A stretch of 64,000 nucleotides of DNA from Eukaryota sp. GEM-RC1. Lineage: Eukaryota. Below the pieces are notes generated by a model, which saw only the letters and a list, made by a program, of their open reading frames with translations, was not told the DNA's origin and did not search any database. The translations under genes and the position numbers were made by a program. The stretch is taken from contig JAUFOQ010000006.1 in the NCBI GenBank assembly GCA_040285855.1, forward strand, positions 496,001-560,000, written 5' to 3'. Positions 3,344 through 60,947 of the stretch are shown here, one piece after another (position 1 is the stretch's first letter; each line of letters starts with the position of its first letter).

Positions 3344-4751
3344 AAAAAAGAGAGAGATGTTTATTCGGCACCCAATAAGGTAACCTTCTACAAACTATGA
3401 AATTGTAAAAACAAACAAATAATACTAAGATTAAATCCAAACGACTTCATCACCACCCGGTAAAAGATTACGTGTATCTACATGAACCTTCACACCAAAC
3501 TTGTACAATTTCTCAATTAATCTAGAGAAATAGAAAGGCATATTCCGATATATGGAAAACACTATACGGTTTTTCCATTCAGCCATTCTAAACTTACGCT
3601 TCTTTTCTTTACACAATTCTTCGAAATCCTTGAAAAATTGATCACCAGCAGGACTAATAGATCCAAAAAGAGAAACAGCAAAGGTTGAAACACATATTTG
3701 GAATATGAGTTTCTATTTAATTCTTCTACTTGAGAGTCATACTTGGTGTGTTTGAGCTTTTCAGCTGCTGTTAATGGATTAAAAGAAGAATCTAATATCC
3801 TACTAACACAAGATTTGTTACATACATCTACTGTAGTAAAATTCATTAATGATTGACTCGATTTAAGCCACGGAGTATGTAGATCCCCTCGTTTTTGATC
3901 AGTAAATTCATTTTCTGAAAGATGATTCAAAACTGGTTCAACTTTAGAGTGAACACCATGTGCTTTAAACATGGAATAACAAGAATCACGTACACCATCA
4001 TGAATTACTGCACGGAGATGAATAAAATAACGACAATTAATTAAATGACGAAAAACACCATTAGCTCCACAAGAGCACGTTGAATAGTTTAATAAATTTG
4101 CAGGCCAAATAGCCAAACGAAGACGCATATTGATCATCCAAGCTTCATCAGATAGATGTAATCCATACACCTTTGGAATTTGAGAAATAAATCCAGAAGC
4201 TCCACTATTACAAAGATCGATTAAAAAAGCAGCGAACTCGGGACTATTAGTTTTAGCCAAGCTAATACGATTATTAAAGTCCAAGAGTTCAAACTCCTTG
4301 TCAATTTATTTTGCAGCTTACATACAGCAGATGGTAGAGATGAAATATTTTTAAAGGAGTCTCCTTCAAATGAGCAGGGAACAAAGATTCCCACATTTCA
4401 GGAGACAAAGATGATACCAAATCTTTAGCAGATTGAATCCAACGGCAATTACTGGAATTCAACAGATTGATTCCATCCAAGGGAAACCGTTTCAAAAATT
4501 CAAACATAAAATTCTTAACACCTCCTAAAAGAGCAGATTTTCTAATGATTTTTGCATGGGTAAACCTACTCCTGCGAATTCAGAAGAATAAAAAGCATGA
4601 AATGGAATCTTAGACTCATCAATTTCAGCCAAGTTAGAGAGAAAATTTGTTCTAATAGAATTAAATTTCTTGGCAAATGTTTCAGTAAGGGAATAGTCTA
4701 ATGAACGTAAAAAATGATTAATTTTCCCGGAAAAACAGACCTGAAGCATAA
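3344..4751 (-). mobile_element. 5'-truncated non-LTR retrotransposon with restriction-like endonuclease (CRE-like)
   Basis: CSCG..HLINC zinc finger, then HDGVRD, RGDL and AEKLKHTKY RLE motifs; 9-bp direct repeat AGGTCAATT at 3335-3343 and 4752-4760; empty site in the paralog at ~12470-12500. Confidence 0.85.
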
Positions 4752-4846: not shown

Positions 4847-6608
4847 CAGTGATGCGAAAAAATTAATTTAATTATAATTAATTGAATTAATTCCCTGAGA
4901 ACTAATTAATTCTAGATGCTTAGAATTATAATTAATTAATTGTTACACCTTAGAATTAAAATTAATTAACGGAAATTAGTAGAATTAATTGTATAATTTC
5001 TTGTCAGCCATACTGGGTTACATACATGTAGTTGCAAAATACACGGACAAAAAAAATAATACAATACAGAATACAAAAAATACAGAATACAAAGATACAA
5101 TACAGATACAGAATACCAATACAATACAGAATACTGTATTAAGTGTATTTTTGATCTTGTAATTACAAGTATTACACTAAGTGTATTGAGTCCAACAATT
5201 GTAAACGTGATTGATCTTCAGGGTTATCAGGGTTTACCTCTTCAGTACGCATTCTTTATATTTATCAACCCAATTGCTCTGTCGATTCTAAAATGCACAG
5301 ACGGTTCAAATGTTCATTTGATCCACGGAAAGAACTGACGTGGAGTTATACAGTTATACAATGTGACTTTGGACACTTTTTGTCTCGTACATTAGTTGTA
5401 AATCGGCTTAATATACCGCTTGTAGGTTAAAAGGTCTAAAGTCGAAATCATAGTCTACAAAGACAACACATACTAGTACACCTTCAAAACAGGATCAATC
5501 TGAGTGTCGTGTAGCTCGTCTCATCATGGTTTTGAATCTTCATCACTCACTGACAGTAGTGAAACTAGATTGCACAACTTCAACTTTACATGGTTTGGTA
5601 TTTTTCAATTCTTTAGAACGAACATTATTAAGCGATTCTAAATATTTGTTACTTGACTTTGATCGGTGTTTCACTTTTTAGTCATCTAGCATGTGCTGCT
5701 GACGTACTGTACTGGAACATTTAGAAAATTCAGCAGACGATTGTACTAGTATTTCTGACAGTTGTTAAAATAATACATGGCCCAATTGTACCAAACAATA
5801 GCATAATTGATCAGCAAGATTCGCTGTCGAGTTTTTCGCTCATTTACTTCAGTCATTTTCATCAATGAACGGGATTTTCGGGCTGATAAAAAAATACAAA
5901 AAATACAAATACATAATACACTTTTCCCAGAAAAAATACAATACATAATACAAAAAAAATACAGAATACAAAAAAATACTGTATTTTGTATTTTACAACT
6001 ATGCTGGGTTATCGTCTCAATATTCAACAAGAAAGCATTGTCTATTTTTACATGTGTCGAACCACGATCTTCTAGTGCACATGAGAACCTTACAACTACA
6101 TAGTTTGATAGTGTTACAGTGGATACTTTTCAAACCTGGACTGCTAAATACCAGTAAACTGACGATATCATCAAACTTGCTTAGTTTACGAGATTCAAAA
6201 CGCAAACAAACTCCAAAACTGGACAATATAACTCGTTCCTGGTTTATTGTCATCATAATAGCATGTTATAGTAACTATGGGAATCATTCAGTTCTCTAAC
6301 GAAGCAATATTCCACCTCTGGAACCTGTTTTTCCGTACTTTGATGTAGTCAAATCAATTCTTTTAGGAACTGTCATAAGACAACGGTATCGAATTCACTA
6401 CCATTCACTTAAGATGGTAATTATGATTGATAGTATGTTGTATGTTATCGTATTGCTACTAAAGAATTTATTGCAATTAATTGCAATTAATTAATTGTGG
6501 GACCGGGGAATTAACATTAATTAATTTTAGGCCATATGAATTAAATTTAATTAATTGAGGGTGTCAAGAATTATTAATTTAATTTAAAATAATTTCTTCG
6601 CATCGCTG
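4847..6608. mobile_element. Non-autonomous hAT-type element
   Basis: TIRs CAGTGATGCGAAAAAATT / CAGCGATGCGAAGAAATT; 8-bp TSD GTTTGATC (4839-4846, 6609-6616); AATTAATT-rich subtermini; single GTTTGATC at the paralogous empty site ~12387-12394. Confidence 0.92.
5021..6003. mobile_element. hAT-type MITE nested in 4847-6608
   Basis: Perfect 8-bp TSD CTGGGTTA (5013-5020, 6004-6011); TIR CATAGTTGYAAAATAC, left copy interrupted by CATGTA; AATACA-type subterminal arrays. Confidence 0.88.
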
Positions 6609-18422: not shown

Positions 18423-18904
18423 GCTTAGCTCTTTTCTTCATCTTGTAAATATCATCAATTCTTTTAAACTGGAAACTCTGATTTAACCAAAATAAATGGT
18501 TTTGTCAAATACAATCCTTTTTTATACTGTAGCGAAAAAGAATGCTTCAGTCCCTGTTCAGCTGTTACTGATTTAAACGAAGCATCCTATATTTCTGAAC
18601 GCATTTTGCAACTGCAGAGTTGTGCATTAAGTATAGCTCCGTTGTTAATATTGATGAAGATCTTGATTGTATGATTAAATTAAAGGCATTTAAGTACAGT
18701 TGTATCTAATGAATTCTAATGAAGCTTTATCTATAATCGTACCATATTTAATTTTGCATCGTTATTCCACACAGGAAACGGAGAGACGTTTCAAACAATA
18801 GTGTCATCTACTACGTACACTCCAGGAAACATTTAGTCTCACTGCAGATTCTGTGTTCGAAGACACGCGTGGACACGTTTGGACACGAACACGCAGACTT
18901 GTAG

Positions 18905-19055
18905 TGTTGAGATGGAATCACGATGTTGTTGTAATGGATCAGCCAATATCATTGTTTTCACAGTATCTCGCCGGAAAATCGTTATCCGTCGGGTTCGGAA
19001 TCCATTGTATGTGTTTCAATTATTCGAGAAAGCGATTTCAACTCGTACTGTTTAG
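18905..19055 (+). pseudogene. 3' fragment of the PH-like gene family
   Basis: Aligns with 1723-1879; starts a direct duplication running to ~20930. Confidence 0.75.
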
Positions 19056-19488
19056 TCGAAAATAATAATGCATCCTTAAACCATGTAGGACAAACTGGGT
19101 TGTTTAAGATCGCTACAATGTTCACTTATTTGAAAACTGGTTGAAAACCGTGAATTTTCTTTTAAGACTTTCTTTCCAGGTTTTACAGTAAATTGAACAT
19201 GGGGTCAATTTCATTGCATTTTTAGAAACAATTATTGTTAAAATCGACAGCATTCTTTATTTGTAACTGTTGAGTAAAAGACGTATTTATTGTGTATTCA
19301 CTAAGTTTTTGATGATGTAAGTCCACTAAATTCGTTGGATAACAGGGTTGTCATGCGCTATACGTGTTTTGATGTCAGAATTTTTCGAGCGAGATGTCAT
19401 TGTTTTCGAAAATCAAATTTCGTTGACAAAATACACTGAAACAAGAACATCAAAAATAATATATTTACATTTTTACAATTTTAATGTA

Positions 19489-20373
19489 CAGTAAACTCTC
19501 TCTAATTGCAACCCCTGTAATTGAAAACTCTCTGAAATTGCAACAAAAACCCATGCCACCGAGTAAAACAATACCAAATTGAAAATTGCAACAATTGCAA
19601 CAGCTTTTGAGACCTAATTGAAACATTGAAGTCAACATTACACTGTATTCTGGTTGTCGCATCTATAGCTAGCTGCCATATATTGATGTTAGTGTGAAGA
19701 AAGAGGAAGACGTTGTTGTGTTTCATAAATCCTACAGTAATCTTCTGGTTTTTCCCATCATCAACTTCAATGTCCCGTACACAGTACTGAACATCAACCA
19801 AAAGTCAAATACAAATGCATGCTCGTCAATATTTTGAAGATGAAGAAAATACAGAAACTGTAACTGCAGAACCTTTCCTCAAAAAAAAGAACTGAATCAT
19901 TGTTTGAGAATTTTCTCCAATCGTGTTGAAATACATTAGTTTAATGACTTCACTGCTCTAAATCAAGTGATGATAGATCTTCCAGTAGTGCTGGGGGAAA
20001 AGAGGGAGAAAAGATTGGTTCATTTTTTGTCACCCTTACGAAATATCAAAGAAACACTTACTACTAGTATGTACCATTGTGTAAAGAGTACTGTCGATAG
20101 TAAGTAAAAGTATTTTTGAAAAGCGGGATGATTAATTTGAGCCATGATAATAACATTTGTTTAAGTCCAAGCATTCATGGTAGTTTTATTGTGGATCAGA
20201 CTTGTTAATTTGCTCTTGCAGACTAATTAATAACATATTTGATGTTCTGGAATAAATATGGATGTTGTATTTAGTTTAGAGTAGCTTTATAGGAACTCTC
20301 TGTAATTGAAAACTCTCTGAAATTGAAACGAAACTCCATTCACCAAGTCGTTTCAATTAGAGAGAGTTTACTG
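19489..20373. mobile_element. Tc1/mariner (pogo-like) MITE
   Basis: Perfect 20-bp TIR CAGTAAACTCTCTCTAATTG; TA on both sides; absent from the paralogous site ~2360-2400. Confidence 0.92.
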
Positions 20374-21578
20374 TAGTTTAAATTTCAACTATCATTCATT
20401 GTCAAAATGTATTAACTGATAAATGAATCTAGATACATGTGCTCAAAGCAATCCTACAGTTGTATAATATTTAGTTAAAAGAGCTCATTACCATGTACTG
20501 TAGTTCTATTTCAAATTTTGGTAACAATGACCGAGCCATTTCAAAATTATTCAATGATTTTGACCGTTGGAGACTTCTAATAGACAGTTTGTTATTGGCT
20601 ATTGCGGTATAAATCGTATTTTCCCTCAATAGAAGCGTTTCCAAAGAGTTAAATCTATTCTAAGTTGACTAGAGACAATTCGCGAGTCGTTGGGCCAATT
20701 GCGGCTGTATTCAGTCGCTAACAGTCAGCAAATGTAAGAAACGACATTGATGAACTCGTAAAACCAGTCTTAGTTGAGTATTTTGTACTGATTCAGACTC
20801 TTATTTAGTACGAATGAATCAATTGTTTCAAATATATCAGTAATTCCTGGCAAATGCAGAAGTAATTAACATACAAATGTTTTCAAATAAATTTGTATAT
20901 ACTTCCTGATATAGTACCGTATTAAAAATGGCTGAAACGCAAATCACTGAATAATGTCAAAATAGTGACATGACTTTAGTTGATGCAATTATATTTATCG
21001 TCGGTTGAGCTTTTTTTATTAGGTCAGCCAACAATAGCGACACACAAAATGCGTTCTCAAAAGGACACTCTGCCCTTGCAAACTACTGAAACATGAAGGA
21101 TAGCAAAAAAATAGAAATACGGTAAATATATCTAGAACTAAGCATACCTAAAAAACTTATAAGAGTTCTTCATCAAATAGAAGATCAAATCAATTAATGT
21201 TCTACTACATGTTGAACATAATTCAGTGACAACCAGAGCCACAAAGGCACTTGCTAAAAGAATCTTACCCGTAGGGGATGTTCTAAACATAGTGAAAGGT
21301 TCTCTTGAAGAAAGAGTCTCAATTTTGTTGAATGATATTCTTGATCATTTACCCAATTTACTAGAACGACAGTCTCCTTCGATCCAACGTTTCCTTCAAT
21401 AAGTCGTGTGCTCTTAAATGACGCATTATCAAGGGTGGACTGTATAATGCAAATAATCATTCGATACAATACAAGAATTACCCGACACACGAGACTCGGT
21501 GTATTGTTTTTGCAAGGATTGGAACTCTGTGATGAAATTAATTAAAATTTCAACCCTCTTCTAAACCAACTTCAAGGA

Positions 21579-22020
21579 ATGAATTACGATAATCAAAACC
21601 ATCACTCTGAAGCAGTGTACAGTAGTATCCAGATTCCTGATGACAGTCTTTCCTTTGACGAGTCAATAATGGCCCCTTCTTCTAAGAACGAGAGCATTCT
21701 CTGGGAAGGACGTCCCAATGTCTCTATATTGGATTGGGTTTGTTCAGCTCTTGTTCTTACCGTAGCCATTGAACACCTATCGCTACATGTTAACAAACAA
21801 AATGTTTGTCGCCAAAACGGGATGGCTCACGCGATCTTACTCTGTTTTCCCCATTTCTCACATTGCTGGCGTTGAGATGGAAGTAGGTTGTTGCTGTAGT
21901 GGGTCAGCTAATATCATTGTTTTCACTGTATCTCGCCGAAAAATCGTTATTTATAAGGTTCGGAATCCGTTGCACGTTTTTAAATTATTCGAGAAAGCGA
22001 TCTCAACTCGTACTGTTTAG
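21579..22020 (+). CDS. Small PH-like (bPH_2-like) protein with one TM segment
   Basis: ESILWEGRP, hydrophobic stretch, YRY.LTNK, KTGWLTR, I..VRNP; frameshift near 21770. Confidence 0.55.
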
Positions 22021-22331
22021 TAATTCTCATTGTCTCAATTTTAAAGCAAACTTACAGTCATGGCAAAATAGAAGTGTTATTCAAAACAGAGTTCTTGATA
22101 TGAATACACACGTGTGTAACTTAACACATTCTAAAGTGGAATATCTATTGTCCGGAATTAATTTATACAAATTTCAAAATCATGTGCGAAATGACAGTGT
22201 CGTTTTCCGCACAGAGTGATAGTACTATAGCAAATTAACACACTTCAATGCAGTATGCAGATAGATGTAAATATATATTATAACACGATGATAATCATAC
22301 ATCTTCAACAACGAGTTTATTTACAAAAGCC

Positions 22332-29110: not shown

Positions 29111-29593
29111 TTATTATTATATGTATTTTTGTACCCTCCATCAATAAACTGATTTATTCTATTAAGCAATTTTAAAATTTGTTTGAATATTTGTGTTCAG
29201 AATGTGGTAAGAATTGTAACAGATTGTACTACCTGGACAGAAGAGTTTTTTGCCTTTCCAATTTTTAAGTACAGTATATGTATAGATATGTTGATTCCAT
29301 TTTGTTCAAGTTGTTTGGAGGCTACTACTTTTCAGAATTGGGCAGTTCGTTTGATAATTTGTTGTAATAGTGTGTATTAATTTTTTGTTGTTTTGTTGTG
29401 TGTTTTTCTCCGTACATAATTCCGTTTTTCAATCAAATGTTGCAAGTAGAGCTATTTATTTAATTGTATTAAAAGAAACATTCGTTAACATTTGACAACA
29501 AACAGACACTGTGTCCATTGGTCAATAATGGCGGTCAACAATAAGTTTTTTTTTGCAGTTTCCAAATTCGGACTCTTCATCACTTCATTCCAA

Positions 29594-36210: not shown

Positions 36211-36238
36211 AGGATTCTATCTAATTAGATAGAATCCT
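36211..36238. repeat. Perfect 28-bp palindrome
   Basis: AGGATTCTATCTAA|TTAGATAGAATCCT. Confidence 0.95.
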
Positions 36239-37105
36239 TGACCTCTGTTAGACGTTTTCTTGATTTCATTTCATCATTTAGTTTATATTGGGTGACTTTA
36301 AGGATATCTCTGAGTAGTCAAGGGTTTGAGTCTGTTCTCCATCAATCAAAAGTTATTGATTGAATGATCAAGATTGAGACTATGTTCTCTTGTTCATTCT
36401 TATTAGAGTGCTGAATTAAATCTGTTAATCTATCCATTAGTGCGAGCATTGGTGTTCGAGGTGTATATTCATTTTGATTGGGGTTATTTTGTTCCACTGT
36501 TTGTTAAACAATCTTTATTTAACATCCATACTTTCTAGGCTTGGGACACAGGAAAGGACAAGAATGGCAAAACCCGGTTCGTTTTGTTCTTCTGTATTGT
36601 CTTTATTTTAAATTGTCTAATAAAAAAAGCGGATTTATGTGCGGAGAAAAACACACAACAAGAAAACAAATATTAATAGAGACTATTAAAACAAATTATC
36701 AAACGAACTACCCAATTCCGAAAGGTAGTTACCACCAAACAATTTGGACAAAATGGAATCAACAAATCTATACATAGACCTAAAAATCGAAACAATATTA
36801 TCTTTTCAGAAAATTGTTGCGTCTATTCTGAAGACTTATACAGTAGTTCTATTGTTTAGGTATTTTGATTCGACTTTGAACCGTCTTTTTGCAGTGAGTC
36901 ATGAACTTGAGATGATGTAGAGGTATTGGTATCTTTGATGATGATCTTGATTAATATGATTAAATTAATGGGGAACTGTACGATTCAGAGTTTGAACTCA
37001 ATCTTTGGCATACGCATTGATAAACAGTAATGTATTGACCACTACACTAGTTTGTCCACATCACAGTTAGGCAGTTACCAATTTACTTATCAAATTCTTT
37101 CTCTC

Positions 37106-39790: not shown

Positions 39791-40189
39791 TAAAGTAAAA
39801 TATGAAATTGAAGCCCCTCCACGTAATAGTGGCCCCCACGCAATAGTGGCCGATTTTTGGATGGGGCTTATACGGAGAGGCCTCACCACGTAATAGTAGC
39901 CCCTGGTTATAAAGAATTTATAAGTATCGATCTTCGAGGATTTGGCCATATTGTGTGAGTTAGAATTGGGTGAGTCACATGTGGAAGTTGTTGATGAGTA
40001 ACTGTTTTTATTGTTTTTGACAGTGAATCCACTACATGCGACACAACTGAGACTTCAGAACATGATTTGGTAAGGGGCTTATAGAGAGAAGCCCCACCAC
40101 GTAATAGTAGCCCCCACGTAATAGTAGCCGATTTTAAGATGGGGCTTATACGGACAGGCCCCGGGGCTTCAATTTCATATTTTACTTTA
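39791..40189. mobile_element. 399-bp MITE
   Basis: Perfect 27-bp TIR TAAAGTAAAATATGAAATTGAAGCCCC; five CCACGYAATAGTRGCC units; terminal TA may be the TSD, and GAT also flanks both sides. Confidence 0.9.
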
Positions 40190-44959: not shown

Positions 44960-45507
44960 TTATACAACCAATCCAAACTCACTAAATCCTCGGACACTCA
45001 AGTTAAACTCGACACTAAGCCATCCGTTTGTTCTTGTTCGAACCATTTCCCGATGATCGTTTTTCCCAGCCCAAAGAGGATCTGCTGGGTGAGGAAGATA
45101 GCCTGTAGCCCATGCTGTGATACCTTCAATTACAGAGGTTGGAACTATTTGAAAAGAGGTATTGTTTGAATAGTTGAACCAGGTTTTAACGGTAACACAA
45201 TTGCACCGTATCCAACATGCACCTCACGGTCAAGCCAATCTTTTCCAAAGATCTGGAACACAAGTCTAGGCCAGCCATGAACAGAAGAAGATTCGAATGA
45301 AATAGAGAGAGGAATTGCCCATGTTGCATAGGAAGAATCTGTGTCATTGTAGTGAGATTTGGTACAAGTATGGGAAACTCCTTCTAATGTACCAGAATAT
45401 TGCCAGTTGGAACCAAAGAACCATTGGTACTTAAGAGTCAAATGGTCATGTGAGAAGACTGTCCCTGTTCGAATCTGACCAGAGACAGATATAGTGAAGC
45501 TGCTCAT
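44960..45507 (-). CDS. B9D2: B9 domain transition-zone protein
   Basis: GQI, EGVSHTC, WAIPL, HGWPRL, GYG..LPLKPG; indel near 45150; ends RGFSEFGLVV. Confidence 0.8.
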
Positions 45508-46936
45508 GAAAGGTTTGAGTGCTTCAAAATGTTACAAAGTCAAGTCCTGGGGTTTTCATTTGTTTGGTGTTCAAAAATTTTTCACCACCAACAGAATACT
45601 AGTATCATATGCCTCTAGCTTTTCCCTTATTAATAAACGGCTTTGATGTTCAGAAACTTTCTTGTCATGCATCCAAATCTGCAACTAGATTCTTCAACAC
45701 CCTTTATTACCATAAATAGCTACTTAATGCATGCCATAAACAAAAACACACCTCATATGTGGACAAGATCTACGACAATTGAAGACAAATTCATCAGAAG
45801 ATGTTCGTGTTCGGGCCGTTTCTGCCTTTTTGGTCATGTTCAGCAACACAAAAGCAAGATGCGGAACAGCATTTGGTCAGTCAATCCATTCTTAGCCGGT
45901 GGTTTTCTTCAACCTTCGAAGAAACAGTTGTGACGGCCACACAAGTCAGTGGAATATTGTCTGATGACGAAATTCAACAGCTTAGACACGTTGTGGAAGG
46001 AGATCCACATGTTTTGTGAGGCTTCGAAAAACATTTCCATCCCAAGTCTCTCTAGACTTCTTACAACTCTTTGTTACTCTCATAGAAAGTGTCAGTTTAA
46101 CATAGTCAGTGGTGATCAGGACCAGTAGTATTTTTAAACCATGTATTGTGACCTTATTTATGTAAATATGTTATTCTTTCCGTGCTTTATTACCACTAGA
46201 ACCCTACAGGTGGGAGATTGTTTAGTAACAATTGATTATAAACACATTTCTGGTAAATGATTGGAGGAGAACAACAAAGAGGTTCATGTGTGTAAGAAGG
46301 AGCAGAAACATGTAACGTGTGGATAATGAAGCAGAAGATATTGGAACAATGATGCTTGGTGTCTGTGAAGAAAATTCTTCAGCGGCAACAACATAACCAG
46401 AGAAATGCTGAACAAGAAGGACAATGCCAAGGTTTTCAAGATGTTGATATCAAGGTGTTTTACATTAAGAAAGCAAACATGTTATTGAGAAGACATGTTC
46501 AAGTGAAGACACTATTGACTTGAGAAGATCTACAACTTGATTAAGAAGTGCCTGGTAGGCATTAATAGTAGTTTCAGTCATCAGCAAGTGGCTTATTTAT
46601 GACAAATGCTTCAAGGATGTCCTTCAAAGGGCACAAAGTAATAAAGACACTCAAGGTACAACAATGTACAACAAGAAGAAGTGGGGGTGTAAGAAGAAGT
46701 TGGTACTACTGTAGTATTAGTATGAAGGAGAAAAAAATGAAATTGAACAATAAATCAAAACGAAACGGAATCCAATGGAGGGGAAGGTGATGACAATCAC
46801 ATTACCGACATTGACTATTCTGGTTTCATGGTTCCTCACAATGACTCTGAAGATACACGTGGTTCCTTGGCTTCACACCCAACTCTTGAAGGTGTGGACC
46901 CTTCTTTGACTTGACCTACACGGGAAAAGTGCACTA

Positions 46937-49900
46937 TTGCAAATGACTGCACTTTCCCAGTATGCTCCTCAAAACTACCTTGTGTCAATTGCTCTCTCCT
47001 TAATTGACTTAGAGACAGAGTCTATTGGTTCTTCGTTCTACTTTTCTTGGGACTGTTTTATTCCACCATCTCGTGACTCCCATTGCTACCACTTTGACAC
47101 TGAAGCAACAATGATACAGTTTTTCATTGATTTTTTAGTAGCCACGAAACCTCAATTATTGATTTTTTACAATCATGAATTTGAAATGTTTCCGTACTTG
47201 CTTGAACGATGTCAGCTTCTGGATTTGAAATCCAATTTTGAAATTTCAGATTACATACCTGACATTCCATTGTGGTTCCGTCGATGGTGTTCCCCAACAA
47301 AATTTGGTCCGTTTGTTGCCCTCAATCTTCAAAACGTGGTCAGGGATACATACAAAATTAAAGGAGGGAATGACCTCGAAAATGTCATCGAAAAGCTGCT
47401 AATGCCAAATTTTGTTATGGAGTTCTTGCTTTCTGAAGAAGAATTGAAAAACTTCTCAACAGAATTTAAAAGAGTTTTATCTTTAGACAAAATTCCTGAA
47501 AAAATGATGACCAAGTTTCTACTGTGTGCTAAAGACTCTAAACTGTCAGTATTGTTGTCATCTGCTGGTGGACAGACTGTATTGAAAAACCACATGTTTC
47601 TACAGGCCACTTATCTGATTCAATTATTTAAATTTTATAACACGACTGAGATTCAAAAACTGGTAGGAAGGCCTCCCATGAAAGTGGTGAAAATGGGGTT
47701 ACAAAAGGTGTTGAAAGATCAATCCCATATAGAGGTTATTGAGGATTGTGTGATCAGGACACATCAGTTAGTTGTTCGTGGTACTGGGTTCCTTAAAAGC
47801 TTCCTTTTACACGAATTTGAAGAAGCTTCAGATCCAATTTGTTCTATGAATGATGAGACAAATTGTGTTGTTCCAGAATCGATGGAATCTTATGACATTG
47901 ATGCTGTTCCCTACTACGAACTCCGTTCAAGACAACGAAATATTGTAAATTTAAAAAACTATCTAGGTCATCATGAATTACGTCAATTGCTGCGACGAAT
48001 GGGAATCAAAAAATCTCAGAAATTATTCAGAGATAACCCATGTTCTGATCTTGAGTTTATCTATCGAGAATCTGGTGATTTTCTGTCCAATCATTTTGTC
48101 CAAGATGCTGAGTTCATGTTTGTTCAATACTATTTTGACCATTACATTCCAATTTTGAACAATCTCAGTACTACTATGGGTGAAGAGGTTGTAACAATTC
48201 CTTCTTTGCAGTACCTTCCAAGAATTCTTGATTATGCTGCGAAACAAATCAAAACAAATTATGAAAACAACATGTCTCTTCATTTTCACGAACATGTTTT
48301 TCGATTGTACAATCTTGTTCTGGACAAAAAAAGAAGGCTGAAACTGCTGGGTAAATCTGCTCGTTTAAAATTGTTGAAGAAAATGAATTCTGTTCGAGAC
48401 ATGATTGTTAAAGGGGATTTTGAGAACATACCTTTTAAAGATACTGATGTCTTTCCAAATCCAACTTCAGAAGCTACACTTTACTTTCTAGCTTATCTTA
48501 AATTTAATCTTTTCCCTATCCTGACTTCCGACAAAAATCTTTACTATTGTCAGAAAGCAGATCCACTGACATACGTGAGCCATGCAATTTATTTGGCGAA
48601 AATCACCCAAAGTTTCTTTTTCAATGATGATGGTATTCCAGTTTCTGCTGCTAATCCTTTTCCATCCAGTAGGTCTTTGATTCCTAAAAGTATAAGACTG
48701 GACACAAACTGGATTAATGAGCGCTTTGTTCAATTAAAAGGATCTGCTGATCAGATGAGGAAAACAGTTTTTGCATCCGTAGTAACAGATGAAGTGTTAC
48801 AAGATAGTACTTCGTATGTTGTGAAGTGCTCATCTATCGTTACTGACGGAATATCATGTAGTGTACTCATGATAAGAAAAGACCTTGTAGACTTAGAAAC
48901 AGGTAATGAAAAAACAGGCTACTCTGCAGTTCAAAAATTAACTGAAGTAGAAAGTTATATTGATTGTCTATCAAAAAAGACATCGAAAAATTAAATTTAA
49001 AAAACCGAAGAATCATCGCAGTTGATCCTAATCAACATGATTTGATGTACTGTGTTTCTGAGAAAACAGTTGAAGAAAAAAATTTAGAAAAATTTATTGA
49101 GAACGGAGAAAATCCACTCAGAAAAAGAAAAACTTCAGAAGTAAGAAGTAAAAAAAAGAGGTGGTATCAAAAAAAGAAAAAAACAGTTAAAAAAATGGAG
49201 TACTTCAGATTTTCCCATGGTCAAGCTCAAGAAGAAAGATCAATGGAGTGTTTTTAGATACACTGCAGGGGAACGAGCCTTCGATCGCCGAGGCAAACAA
49301 TTCGAAAAAACAGAAAAGAAGAAAATTTTAGAATTCCAACCTCCAGGAATTGCTGCAAATGGAAAAGAAGTTCATGACTGGTTTTCCTCAGAAACTGCAG
49401 AAGGAGAACGCAAGTCATGCTTTAACTCAAAATTCACTGAGTATCTGGTCAAAAAGAGTTGTATAATGCTCTGATGTCTCCTCTGTATTCTCAACCTTGG
49501 TTCCGAAAGAAACGGTTTCTGCTCTACGGAAATAACCAGCGTTCTGAGAAGAACATGGCGGAGAGACTCAAATTGACCTTTGGTAGCCCATCCGAGACAG
49601 TGATTGCCTTTGGTGATTGGAGTGGCAAATCAACTGGAAGAAGAGGAAAGGCTCCAACTATTAAAGGGCTTGCCATGCGAACAATCCTGCGAAAACATGG
49701 TTTCCAAGTGTTCTTAACAGATGAATACAGAACAAGTAAGTGCTGCAGTGCCTGTGCTTCCAAGGGCATTGAAGGAGTGTGTTCGAATGTAGAAGAGGTC
49801 GACGTGAAATACAAACCGAAAGTATTACGAAACTTGGGGTATCAGAAAGCTAAATTGCGGAACAAAATCAGAAGGCACAATCGCCGCGATTCAGTCAACC

Positions 49901-50428
49901 GTAGAAGCTTTCCAGAAGAGTGGCAGCTATTGAAAGGGAATCTTCTTGAAGATGAAGAAGTAGAAAAAAAAGACTCCGTGGGGGTTAGTAAAGTGCAATC
50001 ATTGTGGGATGTTCTGGAACAGGGATTTAAACTCTGGTATCAACATTTACAGGATCGCTGAAGCAGCTATACGTGGTGAGAGCAGACCAATAATTCTTGA
50101 TAGATCGAAATATGAAAAAGATCATGATGAGGATTCAAGTTCTGGTCAAGCCAGAAAGCGAAGAAGCTCCCAAAACAAATGTGGGTTCTGTGGTGAAATC
50201 GGCCATACCAAACCAAAATGTCCCAAAAACACAGAACCAACGATAAGAAAGTGTGGCACTTGTCGAGAACCAGGACACACCAAAAAAAATTGTCCAAACA
50301 AGAAGAATGTTCCAGAGACGGACGCTGGAAGAAAGAGAACAATGAAGTCTGATGAAAGAAGAGGTCAGACATCCACAAGAATTAGCCCGCCTAACAAACG
50401 GTGTGGCAGCGCTGAAGCGTATCTGTGA
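46937..50428 (+). CDS. Fanzor1 RNA-guided endonuclease with N-terminal PolB exonuclease-like domain and two C-terminal CCHC knuckles (~1160 aa after correcting four A-run indels)
   Basis: RuvC-I IIAVDPN (D 49024); FRYT; FRKKRF..Y.NNQRSE; IAFGDWS; TDEYRTSKCCSAC (E 49723); GLVKCNHCGMFWNRDLNSGINI (D 50024); N-lobe motifs ILDY..IKTNYENN, PFP...IPKSIRLDT, TDGISCSVL. Confidence 0.92.
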
Positions 50429-50493
50429 AGTAAGTAGTGGAGAATCATTTGATCGAGGTGCAAATCTGGTCTTATCTAGATCTAGATCTAGAT
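50361..50493 (+). ncRNA. Candidate Fanzor omegaRNA (scaffold plus putative guide)
   Basis: Expected position overlapping the ORF 3' end; 9-bp stem 50361-50369/50465-50473 (3 G-U) enclosing CCACA/TGTGG, TTAG/CTAA and CGC-TGAA-GCG stems; by-eye fold only. Confidence 0.35.
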
Positions 50494-50554
50494 GCATTCA
50501 AAATGAAAACCACAGTCCCAACTTTTGTCCAACCAATTCAAACCATCTTCACTT

Positions 50555-52199
50555 ATGTCTGTTTCTCTCTTTGGAAGCCGTACTTCTGGCGCTGAATTAC
50601 GTAATCAAAATGGTAAGGTCTTCTTGTTCCCATCTCATTAAAGTCACTGCCGCACTTGCAATTGCTAACATCGTCAAAACTTCTCTCGGTCCTTCCGGTC
50701 TAGATAAAATGATCGTTGATAATGTTGGAGATGTCATCATCAGCAACGATGGTGCTACGATCCTTAAACAAATCGAAGTAGAACACCCAGCAGCAAAGAT
50801 CCTTGTTGAGCTTAGTGATATGCAAGACAAAGAAGTTGGAGATGGGACCACATCTGTCGTCATCATGGCTTCTGAACTTCTCAAAAGAGCTAACCAAATG
50901 ATCCAGCAAAAGATTCACCCAACCTCTATCATGGCAGGTTATCGGGCTGCTTGTCGCCGCGCCGTTCAATTCTGCTCCAAAAATGTTGCTGTCGCCGTCA
51001 CTGAAGACGATAAGGACATCCTCCGCAACATCGTCAGGACAACTCTCTCTTCCAAGATCGCAGGGGTTTCAATGGAACTCTTCCGAACCATCCTCGTTGA
51101 CGCTATTCTCTCCGTTAAAACCTACAACGAACGCGGTGAACCCCGATTCCCCGTAAAAGCCATCAACATCATGAAAGCCCACGGACGATCAGTCGCCGAC
51201 TCTACTTTAATCAAGGGTATTGCTCTTAACTGTGTACGTGCATCTGACGCTATGCCACGTCACTTGAAGGACATTAAGATTGCCTGCCTCGACTTTTCTC
51301 TCCAACGTTTGAGATTAAAGATGGGTATTCAAGTAATCATTGACGATCCTTCTAAACTCGAAGGTGTACGTGAACGCGAAGTTCAAATTGTGAAGGAACG
51401 CATTGAAAAGATCTTGGCCGCTGGAGCAAACGTTATTCTATGCACGGGTGGTATCGACGATACTTCAATGAAGTACTTCATTGAGTCTCAAGCCATTGCT
51501 ATCCGTCGTGTAACTAAGGAAGATCTTCGCAGAATTGCTAAAACTACGGGTGCTCAAGTAGTTGTTAACATGGCCGACATGGAAGGAGAAGAAGTCTTTG
51601 AGAAGGAATGGTTAGGATCAGCTAAGGAGATTGAGCAGGTTCGTATTGCTGATGATGAGTGTATCATGATCAGAGAGCCAGCTAAGTCTTCTGCTTGTTC
51701 CATCCTTTTACGTGGACCTAACGAGCAAATGTTGGACGAGATTGATCGTTCAGTGCATGATGCTTTGTGTGCTCTACGTCGAGCTTTGGAGTCTAAGAAG
51801 ATTGTTCCTGGGGGTGGGTGTGTTGAAGCTGCTCTGTCTATTCATTTAGAACAAATAGCTCATGAAATGAGTACTAGGGAGCAAGTGGCTGTCATGGAGT
51901 TTGCTGAGGCTCTTTTGGTTATTCCCAAGCAATTAGCTTCTAATTCTGCTTTGGATACCATTGAGCTTGTGGCTAAACTAAAGGCTGTTCATCATTTATC
52001 ACAAACCGATGAGTCTAAAGCTGATTATAGGTTTTATGGACTTGATTTGCGTAACGGAACTCTGAGAAACAATCTTGAACATGGAGTTTTGGAGCCCGCT
52101 TTGGTTAAGCTCAAGGCTTTACAATTTGCTACTGAAGCATGTATTTCTATTCTTCGCATAGATGATATGATTAAACTTGAAAAATTGGAACAACAGTAA
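50555..52199 (+). CDS. TCP1: Chaperonin CCT subunit alpha; 31-nt intron 50613-50643
   Basis: MSVSLFGSRTSGAELRNQN|VTAALAIANIVKTSLGPSGLDKM, EVGDGTTSVV, IHPTSIMAGY, FATEACISILRIDDMIKL. Confidence 0.97.
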
Positions 52200-59621: not shown

Positions 59622-60335
59622 TTGTTTGATCTATTACATTTATAATAAAGATGTCATTTTAGTCATTTATGCCAAAAAAATTATATTTATTCTCTTCTTT
59701 CTGTTGACATGACCAGTAATCGGATACCTGATTGACATTGATGAATGAAAATCAACTGACGTTACCAGGAATGGTCCAGCATAACTACCATGTAGCTTAA
59801 ATGTCTTTGTCTTCTGCAGTACGATATGACATATCTTGAACAGGTTACTTTTGTTGTTTTCACGAGGGGGCTTACTTGTTTGAGGAGTTTCTGCCTGTTA
59901 TCGCTTATTGGTTAGTCTTTTGAGTTATAGAGCGATATATTTTACGAGTTGAATCTCAGAGCGACTTTGTCCAAATGCATTTAGTATGTTTCCTGGAATT
60001 GTGTAACCAAAGAAACAAAATCCCAAAATATCAAACACTAAACCACATCATCCTAACAGAACTACACTGTAACATTGCTAGTAGTATCAATTATATCCAT
60101 ATTATTTTGTCTATGATGTTCCTTGATATCTTCTCCTTTTTCCTCACGCATAATAAATAAACACTATTATAACAAATTATCAAACTAACTACCTAATTCC
60201 GAAAAGTAGCTGCCTCCAAACAACTTGGACAAAATGGAATCATCGTGTCTTTACATCAGGGCTGTGAAAAAATATTAATATTTAAATAACGGCAATAAAT
60301 TATTCAGTATGTCTATTTTTAAGAACACAGGATAT

Positions 60336-60947
60336 CATACTTGTAAAATACACGAGTTTTCATTTGACAAATACATAAATACATAAAATACAAAGTAAAA
60401 TACAAACATCCACGTCAGTCAATCTTCATCTTCAATTTTCCTGCAGTTGGTGACACCGTATCAAACATTAGTGCATCGTCATGGATCCCCACTAACTCAC
60501 CAATTCCATCGTCTTCAACTTGTACAAATTCCTGATTTTCTTGTTCAACATCAGGAAATTCATAAAATAGGTATAGTTTGGATTGATGGAATAGATTGGG
60601 AAGACAAGTCATGAAGGAGGGTCTGGTGAAAATTATATGTTGAACTTTTTTTGTTTCATTTGTTCATCATCTATTCTGGATTTGACTCTGTGAAATGCAA
60701 TCAGTTCATAAACAAACGATCTCTCAAACCAAAAAAGAACGACAATCTCTATCTAATCGACTCATTTTACATCAAATCTGTGCCAAAAAAGCACTTGGGA
60801 TGTGTGTTTGAAAAATACATAAAATACATAAATACATAAAAAACGGGGTTTATGATCAGTCAGTGAAATAAATGCATTTGCAGAAGTTAATAACTAACAG
60901 ACACTAACTAATACATAAAATACAGAAATCTTTATTTTACAACTATG
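60336..60947. mobile_element. hAT-type MITE (CATAGTTGTA family)
   Basis: TIR CATASTTGTAAAATA; TSD CAGGATAT/AAGGATAT; AAATACAT arrays. Confidence 0.8.

Follow-up and report, generated by a model that had tools for sequence, protein, structure and literature searches.

A frameshifted Fanzor1 element between divergent B9 and CCT genes and the possible place of an (ATCTAG)n palindrome in its predicted omegaRNA

In a 64,000-nucleotide stretch of DNA from Eukaryota sp. GEM-RC1 (the window), a perfect palindrome lies between the end of a Fanzor gene and the start of a chaperonin gene. The first-pass annotation placed a candidate omegaRNA at this gene end and suggested that the element may stop at ~50473, in which case the palindrome would serve as its guide. 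Does the palindrome belong to the guide, or to the element itself? The account that we prefer, holding it at a little below even confidence, is that a ~5-kb transposon (likely 45547-50515) carries a frameshifted Fanzor1 gene, that the palindrome is part of its right terminal repeat and of the predicted omegaRNA scaffold, and that the guide would be non-palindromic host DNA beyond 50517.

The palindrome and the adjoining Fanzor1 gene

The letters and coordinates of the palindrome, and of the two 9-mers reported to pair beside it (50361-50369 and 50465-50473), proved exact. Positions 50474-50493 form a perfect 20-nt palindrome and an equally perfect ATCTAG tandem of 3.3 units; since rotations of the ATCTAG unit are self-complementary, repeat and palindrome are one observation. 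The palindrome is best accounted for by a hexamer repeated three times in tandem, an array that is automatically self-complementary. Perfect palindromes of at least 20 nt occurred three times in the 64-kb window, this one among them, and Markov simulations gave a mean of 0.08, with at least one in 8 of 100 runs and three in none of the 100. The palindrome is unusual in the window, yet not unique. The longest (36211-36238; perfect, 28 nt) lies ~120 nt past the end of an RRM gene, and another perfect 20-nt palindrome (51465-51484) lies within the chaperonin coding sequence. Allowing up to 3 mismatches, we found no second site of the ATCTAG array in the window, so no repeat target was seen there. 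A degenerate three-unit ATCTAG copy, inverted, is located on the left of the locus at 45667-45690, which weakened the earlier alternative of a repair scar.

The neighboring Fanzor and chaperonin genes named in the first pass were both confirmed by protein matches. The latter is a host TCP-1/CCT chaperonin gene on the plus strand (50555-52199; 537 aa; 31-nt intron at 50613-50643; PF00118, E 1.8e-158). The Fanzor1 gene (46943-50428, plus strand) was pieced together from five overlapping frames (46910-48994, 48964-49257, 49145-49474, 49441-50061, and 49964-50428) on domain, motif, and alignment evidence. Its RuvC D-E-D triad is complete and spread across three of the five frame pieces (D 49024, E 49723, D 50024), and the best structural-database match of the RuvC-II piece was PpFz1 (E 2.4e-9), with SpuFz1 at E 3.1e-7. 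The RuvC-II glutamate stands six residues before the zinc finger (E-Y-R-T-S-K-C at 49723-49743), and a TDG motif is present at 48842; the accessible text of PMC10711439 gives such a shifted glutamate (Ealt) and a TDG in the WED domain as Fanzor1 features. The same text places DPG at RuvC-I "near exclusively" in Fanzor1. Here RuvC-I reads DPN, with the proline kept and the glycine not, as in the whole clade described below and in P0002/P0003; P0002, a DPN protein, matched PpFz1 at E 3.1e-46. Two zinc knuckles (50180-50221 and 50252-50293) lie at the C terminus. The truncated N terminus gave a weak PolB exonuclease match below the cut-off (E 1.1e-4); in this copy, the region of the first exonuclease motif is missing and the acidic residues of the other two are lost.

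Four frame changes interrupt the gene, two on A8 runs (49150 and 49964) and two beside shorter A runs, and it could be followed across 3.5 kb without needing any in-frame stop by substitution. As assembled, the copy cannot make the nuclease, and an RNA from it would need a paralog, unless the frameshifts are sequencing errors. Word-indexed protein searches returned the window's own protein and two distant Fanzors, and nothing for the C-terminal piece, while an AlphaFold model of the RuvC-II piece was too poor for use (pLDDT 45.7). Upstream of the gene, a stop-ridden region (45780-46700, plus strand) is possibly a decayed gene with a helix-turn-helix, judging by weak profile matches (Pfam HTH_ABP1_N, E 0.053; NCBIfam BlaI, E 0.039). 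A Tc1/IS630-like transposase in this region is a by-eye guess; further protein and profile searches of it found no transposase or DDE match.

Inverted arms and the candidate ends of the element

To the left, the locus borders a divergent host gene with a B9-C2 domain, whose first coding stretch occupies 45148-45507 on the minus strand (ATG at 45507; PF07162, E 8.7e-27). It is followed by a 39-nt flank (45508-45546) ending in ...AAGTC, a candidate TAM, and then by the candidate left end. There, outer arm A (45547-45561, plus strand) matched the reverse complement of right outer arm A' (50501-50515, plus strand), the candidate right end, at 14 of 15 positions. Inner arm B (45667-45690, plus strand) matched the reverse complement of right arm B' (50474-50497), of which the palindrome is the inner part, at 19 of 24. 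Arms A and B are collinear on both sides, spaced by 105 nt on the left and 3 nt on the right, and left arm B was the sole match of its quality in the window. An imperfect 28-nt palindrome (45564-45591) lies just inside left arm A, within the 105-nt gap.

The non-coding flanks searched, with start and stop codons of the adjoining genes as borders, ran from the B9 start to the Fanzor frame on one side and, over 126 nt, from the Fanzor stop to the CCT start on the other. The score of the collinear inverted pair, 48, was reached by 0/600, 0/1500, and 0/2000 real control segments. In a further test of three scorings with 300 controls each, the pair score was reached by none in two cases (at +2/-3, the best control had 47 versus 48) and by 14 of 300 at +1/-2. 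Random pairs 4.9 kb apart reached it in 7, 16, and 9 of 300 draws, under a null that includes the window's real inverted duplications. The p value of the arm pair is ~0.002-0.05, varying with the scoring. For arm A alone, 22 of 600 controls reached the score.

When the likeness of flanks was ranked among 153 gene pairs, the 39-nt flanks came 27th, the arm itself first, and the whole 130 nt third; over -130..-1, the CCT/saposin-like pair outscored B9/CCT. Beyond the outer edge of arm A, the two sides no longer resemble each other in sequence. Each ATG is exactly 39 nt away from arm A, the first 9 nt of which recur upstream of a third gene. Being equidistant from both ATGs, arm A could be a shared promoter motif; at the same position, none of the other 16 gene starts examined came close to this match (next-best pair 14 versus 25). 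ACTTT was present in -60..-1 of 7 of 18 gene starts (background 0.108 per 60 nt), both 39-nt element flanks have it, and it is possibly a core-promoter motif.

Each arm pair is bordered on the outside by TC, and AGTC is repeated at 45543-45546 and 50514-50517. Excision of 45547-50515 would leave 78 nt between the two ATGs, and the other two divergent pairs in the window have 38 and 91 nt. No inverted or direct partner ends at the previously proposed boundary of ~50473, and homology continues to 50515. The arms, together with an internal complement at 50437-50469, argue for a right end near 50515 and not at 50473; this placement, drawn from a single copy, has moderate support.

As to the class of the element, its features as a putative TIR DNA transposon are split arms (14/15 and 19/24) and TC or AGTC repeated at the junctions. 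The TA target duplication of Tc1/mariner/IS630 elements was not found at the candidate ends, which are TC-flanked, and we do not assign the element to that family. Helitrons insert between A and T. A Helitron end was rejected, each CTAG of the array being followed by A and no HUH or helicase frame occurring among the ORFs; Helitron ends read 5' TC ... CTRR 3' in the available part of PMC3627910. A 9-bp duplication (45523-45531/50497-50505) was dropped, being one of five such 9-mers between the flanks and coming without inverted ends. The left arm as the ancestral state found no support: with the internal complement, left and right arm paired to the same degree (-12.4 and -12.0 kcal/mol), and the 8-mer that they share has nine occurrences in the window. 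Among 102 viral/metagenomic Fanzor loci there was no close relative and no match at the DNA level to an end of the element, and viral scans with a single protein or with alignment A3 recovered no locus.

Predicted scaffold, guide, and competing readings

With a frameshifted Fanzor1 gene ending at 50428, an omegaRNA at this place is likely. The candidate put forward earlier stood in so far as a structured, omegaRNA-like segment overlaps the last codons of the gene. The predicted scaffold (50347-50515) is on the plus strand, like the gene, and overlaps its last 27 codons. It starts with a 7-bp stem-loop (50347-50370, plus strand; p 0.86-1.0 in all 6 contexts containing it). Next comes a middle domain (50372-50427, plus strand), in which the smaller hairpins noted in the first pass (50385-50407 and 50409-50420) recurred with p 0.92-0.99. 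The internal complement of the right end (50437-50469, plus strand) would then provide the 5' strand of a terminal stem, predicted to close at 50513, at most 2 bases from the end given by arm A. The duplex of 50430-50472 with 50488-50517 had -18.1 kcal/mol, a value reached by 9 of 3970 random segments and by 6 of 1896 with matched GC content; when 50500-50517 alone was used, 129 of 3970 random segments were as good. The fold of 50345-50517 had a z of -2.60 (2/200 shuffles; minus strand, z -1.21) and included the palindrome as a distal hairpin (p 0.63; 0.63-0.78 across contexts). With the guide added, z weakened to -1.57. Rfam gave 4 weak matches over 45500-51000, none overlapping the candidate omegaRNA, and a scan for bacterial promoters and terminators found nothing above shuffles.

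By Fanzor1 rules, the scaffold would be followed in the CCT 5' flank (50516-50532, plus strand) by TC, a candidate target duplication, and a predicted 15-nt guide (50518-50532) that lacks self-complementarity and has no second site in the window. Since AGTC stands before the guide match at the empty as well as the occupied junction, a 4-nt TAM would permit self-cutting and a 5-nt TAM would not. The prediction offers a corrected, testable scaffold (~50345-50517), guide, and TAM for a deep-branching Fanzor1.

In the course of events that we propose, the element would have inserted where the divergent B9 and CCT genes were 76-78 nt apart, and ~100 nt would since have come to interrupt its left repeat. 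A transcript from ~50345 is predicted to form the 7-bp hairpin, the two-hairpin middle domain, and the terminal stem of the repeat with 50437-50469, the palindrome becoming either a distal hairpin or part of the terminal stem. By analogy with tested Fanzor1s, the RNA may run ~15 nt past the element end and could direct the nuclease to the empty B9-CCT spacer beside a TAM ending in ...GTC; repair from the occupied allele would then restore the element. Restorative homing through the cutting of empty sites has been proposed for Fanzor1s, and their TAMs are described as AT-rich (PMC13565253, available in part); the TC duplication and the GTC-ending TAM are atypical.

The RNA architecture predicted at this locus is a known one, that of the published Fanzor1 plan, and with it the idea of a palindromic guide most likely falls. 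In the accessible sections of the respective papers, TIR and TSD belong to the Fanzor1 scaffold, which ends in a stem and not in a pseudoknot (PMC10711439); Fanzor1 RNAs share a first hairpin, SL1, of seven pairs, the solved RNAs having 75-150 nt (PMC11423790); and the small RNA over the right repeat extends 14-15 nt into the flank, with loss of the distal stem 2 tolerated (PMC10432273). Spu-1 of Spizellomyces punctatus (SpuFz1; PMC10432273; PDB 8GKH) has the Fanzor1 RuvC found here and also the first hairpin, right-repeat terminal stem, and flank guide that are predicted here. Spu-1 is 2.1 kb long and has intact 30-nt repeats, a CATA TAM, and a 75-nt scaffold, whereas the window element has ~5 kb, split and imperfect arms, TC flanks, and a predicted scaffold of ~170 nt. 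Compared with SpuFz1, the window protein has ~1,160 codons, exonuclease-like and zinc-knuckle additions, and four frameshifts. The 7-bp SL1 of PpFz1 and GtFz1 (PMC11423790; PDB 9CF0 and 9CER) is predicted here too, the extra protein domains occurring only in the window protein; the overlap of the GtFz1 RNA with the end of its gene is 17 codons, compared to 27 in the prediction here.

In giant-virus and metagenome Fanzor1 loci of the Tc1/mariner type (L001-L102; PMC3627910, available in part), a terminal repeat closes the last scaffold stem, as is predicted here, and the stop-to-end distance is similar. In contrast, the window locus fits neither their TA-ended repeat nor their RNA model, C-terminal knuckles were seen in 0 of 73, and a match to the exonuclease part was seen in none of 102. 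In 14 ends, picked for similar length from 33 extracted, the last stem is closed by the terminal repeat, and 14 of 22 pairs show compensatory changes. A covariance model of these 14 found 12 of 27 held-out loci and scored at most 3.7 bits in 50000-50700, so the window RNA is not of that RNA family. The stop-to-end distance ranged from -1 to 158 nt (median 49) in 47 of 73 distinct loci with a detectable end, compared to 87 nt here for 50515; this range admits all four candidate ends and thus does not discriminate among them.

Folding alone decides little, since borders were chosen post hoc and random regions reach a z of -3.6 when borders are free (20 of 236, with 14 shuffles each and therefore noisy). 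GTGG at 50437-50440 pairs equally well with 50372-50376, which yields a shorter scaffold, and the shorter fold 50345-50445, using the same GTGG, had a z of -3.00 (2/200 shuffles). It is conceivable, although we doubt it, that the omegaRNA is confined to 50347-50441, consisting of the 7-bp hairpin and a three-way junction closed by 50372-50376/50437-50441, and that the element ends at ~50443 with a guide at ~50444-50458. Palindrome and A' would then be CCT promoter DNA, and the arm matches shared motifs or chance. This is the best-folding piece, its 95 nt fall within the 75-150 nt of solved Fanzor1 RNAs, and its closing helix has p 0.86-0.96 when the sequence stops before 50476; the equal distance of arm A from both ATGs would also fit, as would the available text of PMC10432273, where inverted repeats are missing from some Fanzor loci. 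However, when 50510-50513 are included, the terminal stem displaces the closing helix, and for an end at 50443 neither a partner at the left end nor a duplication was seen. Both collinear arms and the internal complement would have to be coincidences, and at none of the other 16 gene starts examined is arm A matched nearly as well at that position.

We consider it unlikely that there is no working RNA at all, the element being dead, its end eroded, the palindrome a local product of slippage or repair, and the folds background. Decay of this kind would fit the four frame changes, the lost exonuclease motifs, and the stop-ridden upstream region; moreover, the three long palindromes in the window indicate a background, and the fold scores lie within the tail of random regions. 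Yet the gene continues for 3.5 kb without substitution stops, all four breaks are at or beside A runs, the RuvC triad is kept, and the array has its degenerate copy at 45667-45690.

A nested insertion seems quite improbable to us. Here, a Fanzor element bounded by arms B (45667-50497) would sit inside a ~137-bp element bounded by arms A, the scaffold would end just past the palindrome, and the right repeat of the small element would be the guide. Such nesting would explain why the arms are 105 nt apart on the left and 3 nt apart on the right; each arm pair has TC/TC flanks, with left flanks ending in GTC, and 50458-50469 can pair with 50488-50497. On the other hand, the internal complement spans A' and B' in one register, which is unexpected if A' came from an unrelated host element, and no second copy of such a small element was present in the window.

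The pairing of 50361-50369 with 50465-50473, described as full in the first pass, is formally possible, but three of its nine pairs are G-U and it is at chance level: an equally long long-range helix was present in 208 of 600 real 133-nt segments. It was absent from the minimum-energy folds of 50361-50473 (z -0.26; 83/200 shuffles as good) and of 50361-50493 (z -0.97; 31/200 shuffles). Its pair probability was 0.18-0.27 at the borders first proposed, ~0.01 for 50355-50500, and 0.000 for both 50340-50493 and 50300-50520; forcing it in 50340-50493 cost +7.2 kcal/mol. The helix is lost with 21 extra 5' bases because its 5' strand pairs in the local 7-bp hairpin (50347-50353/50364-50370). That the element ends at 50473 and the palindrome acts as a guide, self-complementary or aimed at repeats, is very improbable: the helix can form at exact borders (p up to 0.27) and the 45 nt from stop to end are close to the relatives' median of 49, but the helix is displaced by the 7-bp hairpin, 50473 bears no boundary mark, the palindrome together with 4 further bases is matched, inverted, at the left side of the locus, the array has no second window site, and a self-folded guide (p 0.63-0.78) would probably be poorly available.

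Relatives with an exonuclease domain and other features of the window

A search of 1.84 billion representative proteins for relatives gave 86 matches. The 20 of the top 21 that were looked up were all hypothetical proteins from isolates GEM-RC1, TZLM3-RCL, and TZLM1-RC, and in a quick tree (59 rows), one side of a branch with an SH-aLRT of 90 consisted of the window protein together with 11 of these hypothetical proteins (12/12 rows). Like the window copy, members of this clade have a PolB-exonuclease-like domain before the Fanzor core and DPN at RuvC-I; unlike it, the intact members keep three exonuclease motifs and a 2A-like motif. P0006 (KAL0225525.1; 1,473 aa) and P0093 (KAL0227451.1; 1,479 aa) are unbroken and matched PF03104 ahead of the Fanzor core (E 5e-13). 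All three exonuclease motifs were kept in 3 of 55 proteins scanned, a set that comprised 52 members of the family, largely fragments, besides the window protein and two distant Fanzors. P0006, P0093, and P0095 are unbroken or near-unbroken Fanzor1 proteins that combine an N-terminal 2A-like motif with a PolB-type 3'-5' exonuclease in which the three motifs are kept. The 2A-like motif was present in seven proteins, six times as D(V/I)ExNPGP (as defined in the abstract of a paper) and once as a variant, and P0017 and P0110 contain an additional Ulp1 protease domain.

The three isolate names are those of Skoliomonas (PMC11603281, available in part), and the relatives' assemblies were long-read with short-read correction (PMC11316075, whose accessible text does not mention Fanzor). 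In the relatives, comparison of sequences shows Fanzor1 joined to a PolB-type exonuclease, whose function is predicted. The listings, abstracts, and main-text portions covered, including PMC10530073, PMC10711439, PMC6338049, and PMC10691335, described neither a natural fusion of Fanzor with an exonuclease nor a Fanzor from Skoliomonas. Extra domains as such are expected, given that Fanzor N termini are described as variable in the available part of PMC3627910, where DEDDh nucleases are also noted in other transposons.

A more far-reaching reading, which we regard as speculative and improbable as a whole, would make this an undescribed Skoliomonas lineage of Fanzor1. Its polyprotein would have a 2A-like skip, a working PolB-type 3'-5' exonuclease, and sometimes Ulp1, acting as a natural cut-and-resect editor; its omegaRNA would have a long palindrome-capped terminal stem and, at this site, be aimed at the promoter that two housekeeping genes share. 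Should the exonuclease act together with the nuclease, engineered nuclease-exonuclease fusions would have an equivalent in nature, one relevant to how Fanzors steer repair after they cut. The locus thus leads to intact relatives of 1,473-1,479 aa, in which a Fanzor1 is joined to a proofreading-type exonuclease that retains its catalytic motifs.

One relative also touches the predicted first stem. The tail of P0020 (M-S-V-Q-Q-T, compared to K-S-D-E-R-R-G-Q-T in the window) would allow the GUCUG/CAGAC stem of the window, in an unchanged frame; the stem-compatible pattern had 6 occurrences in 54,151 positions, two of them in P0020. This likeness was spotted in hindsight, and common ancestry of the proteins may be all that lies behind it.

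Elsewhere, the window contained a MITE-like element of ~400 bp (39791-40189) with perfect inverted ends of 27 nt and internal 17-nt repeats. Recent inverted duplications involve kinase-LRR genes (6609-8716/10291-12394; 98.5%) and Hsp70-like genes (12697-14503/16579-18384; 96.1%), the two Hsp70-like copies having a frame change at the same place. A 247-aa frame on the minus strand (3562-4305) looked by eye like the C-terminal endonuclease part of a non-LTR retrotransposon and had no Pfam match. Dispersed repeat families (79-87% identity) were found at 29274-29429, 36625-36779, and 60152-60256, and at 1433-2950 and 18904-22021, and AATAC-rich arrays at 5036-5134, 5888-5994, and 60369-60928.
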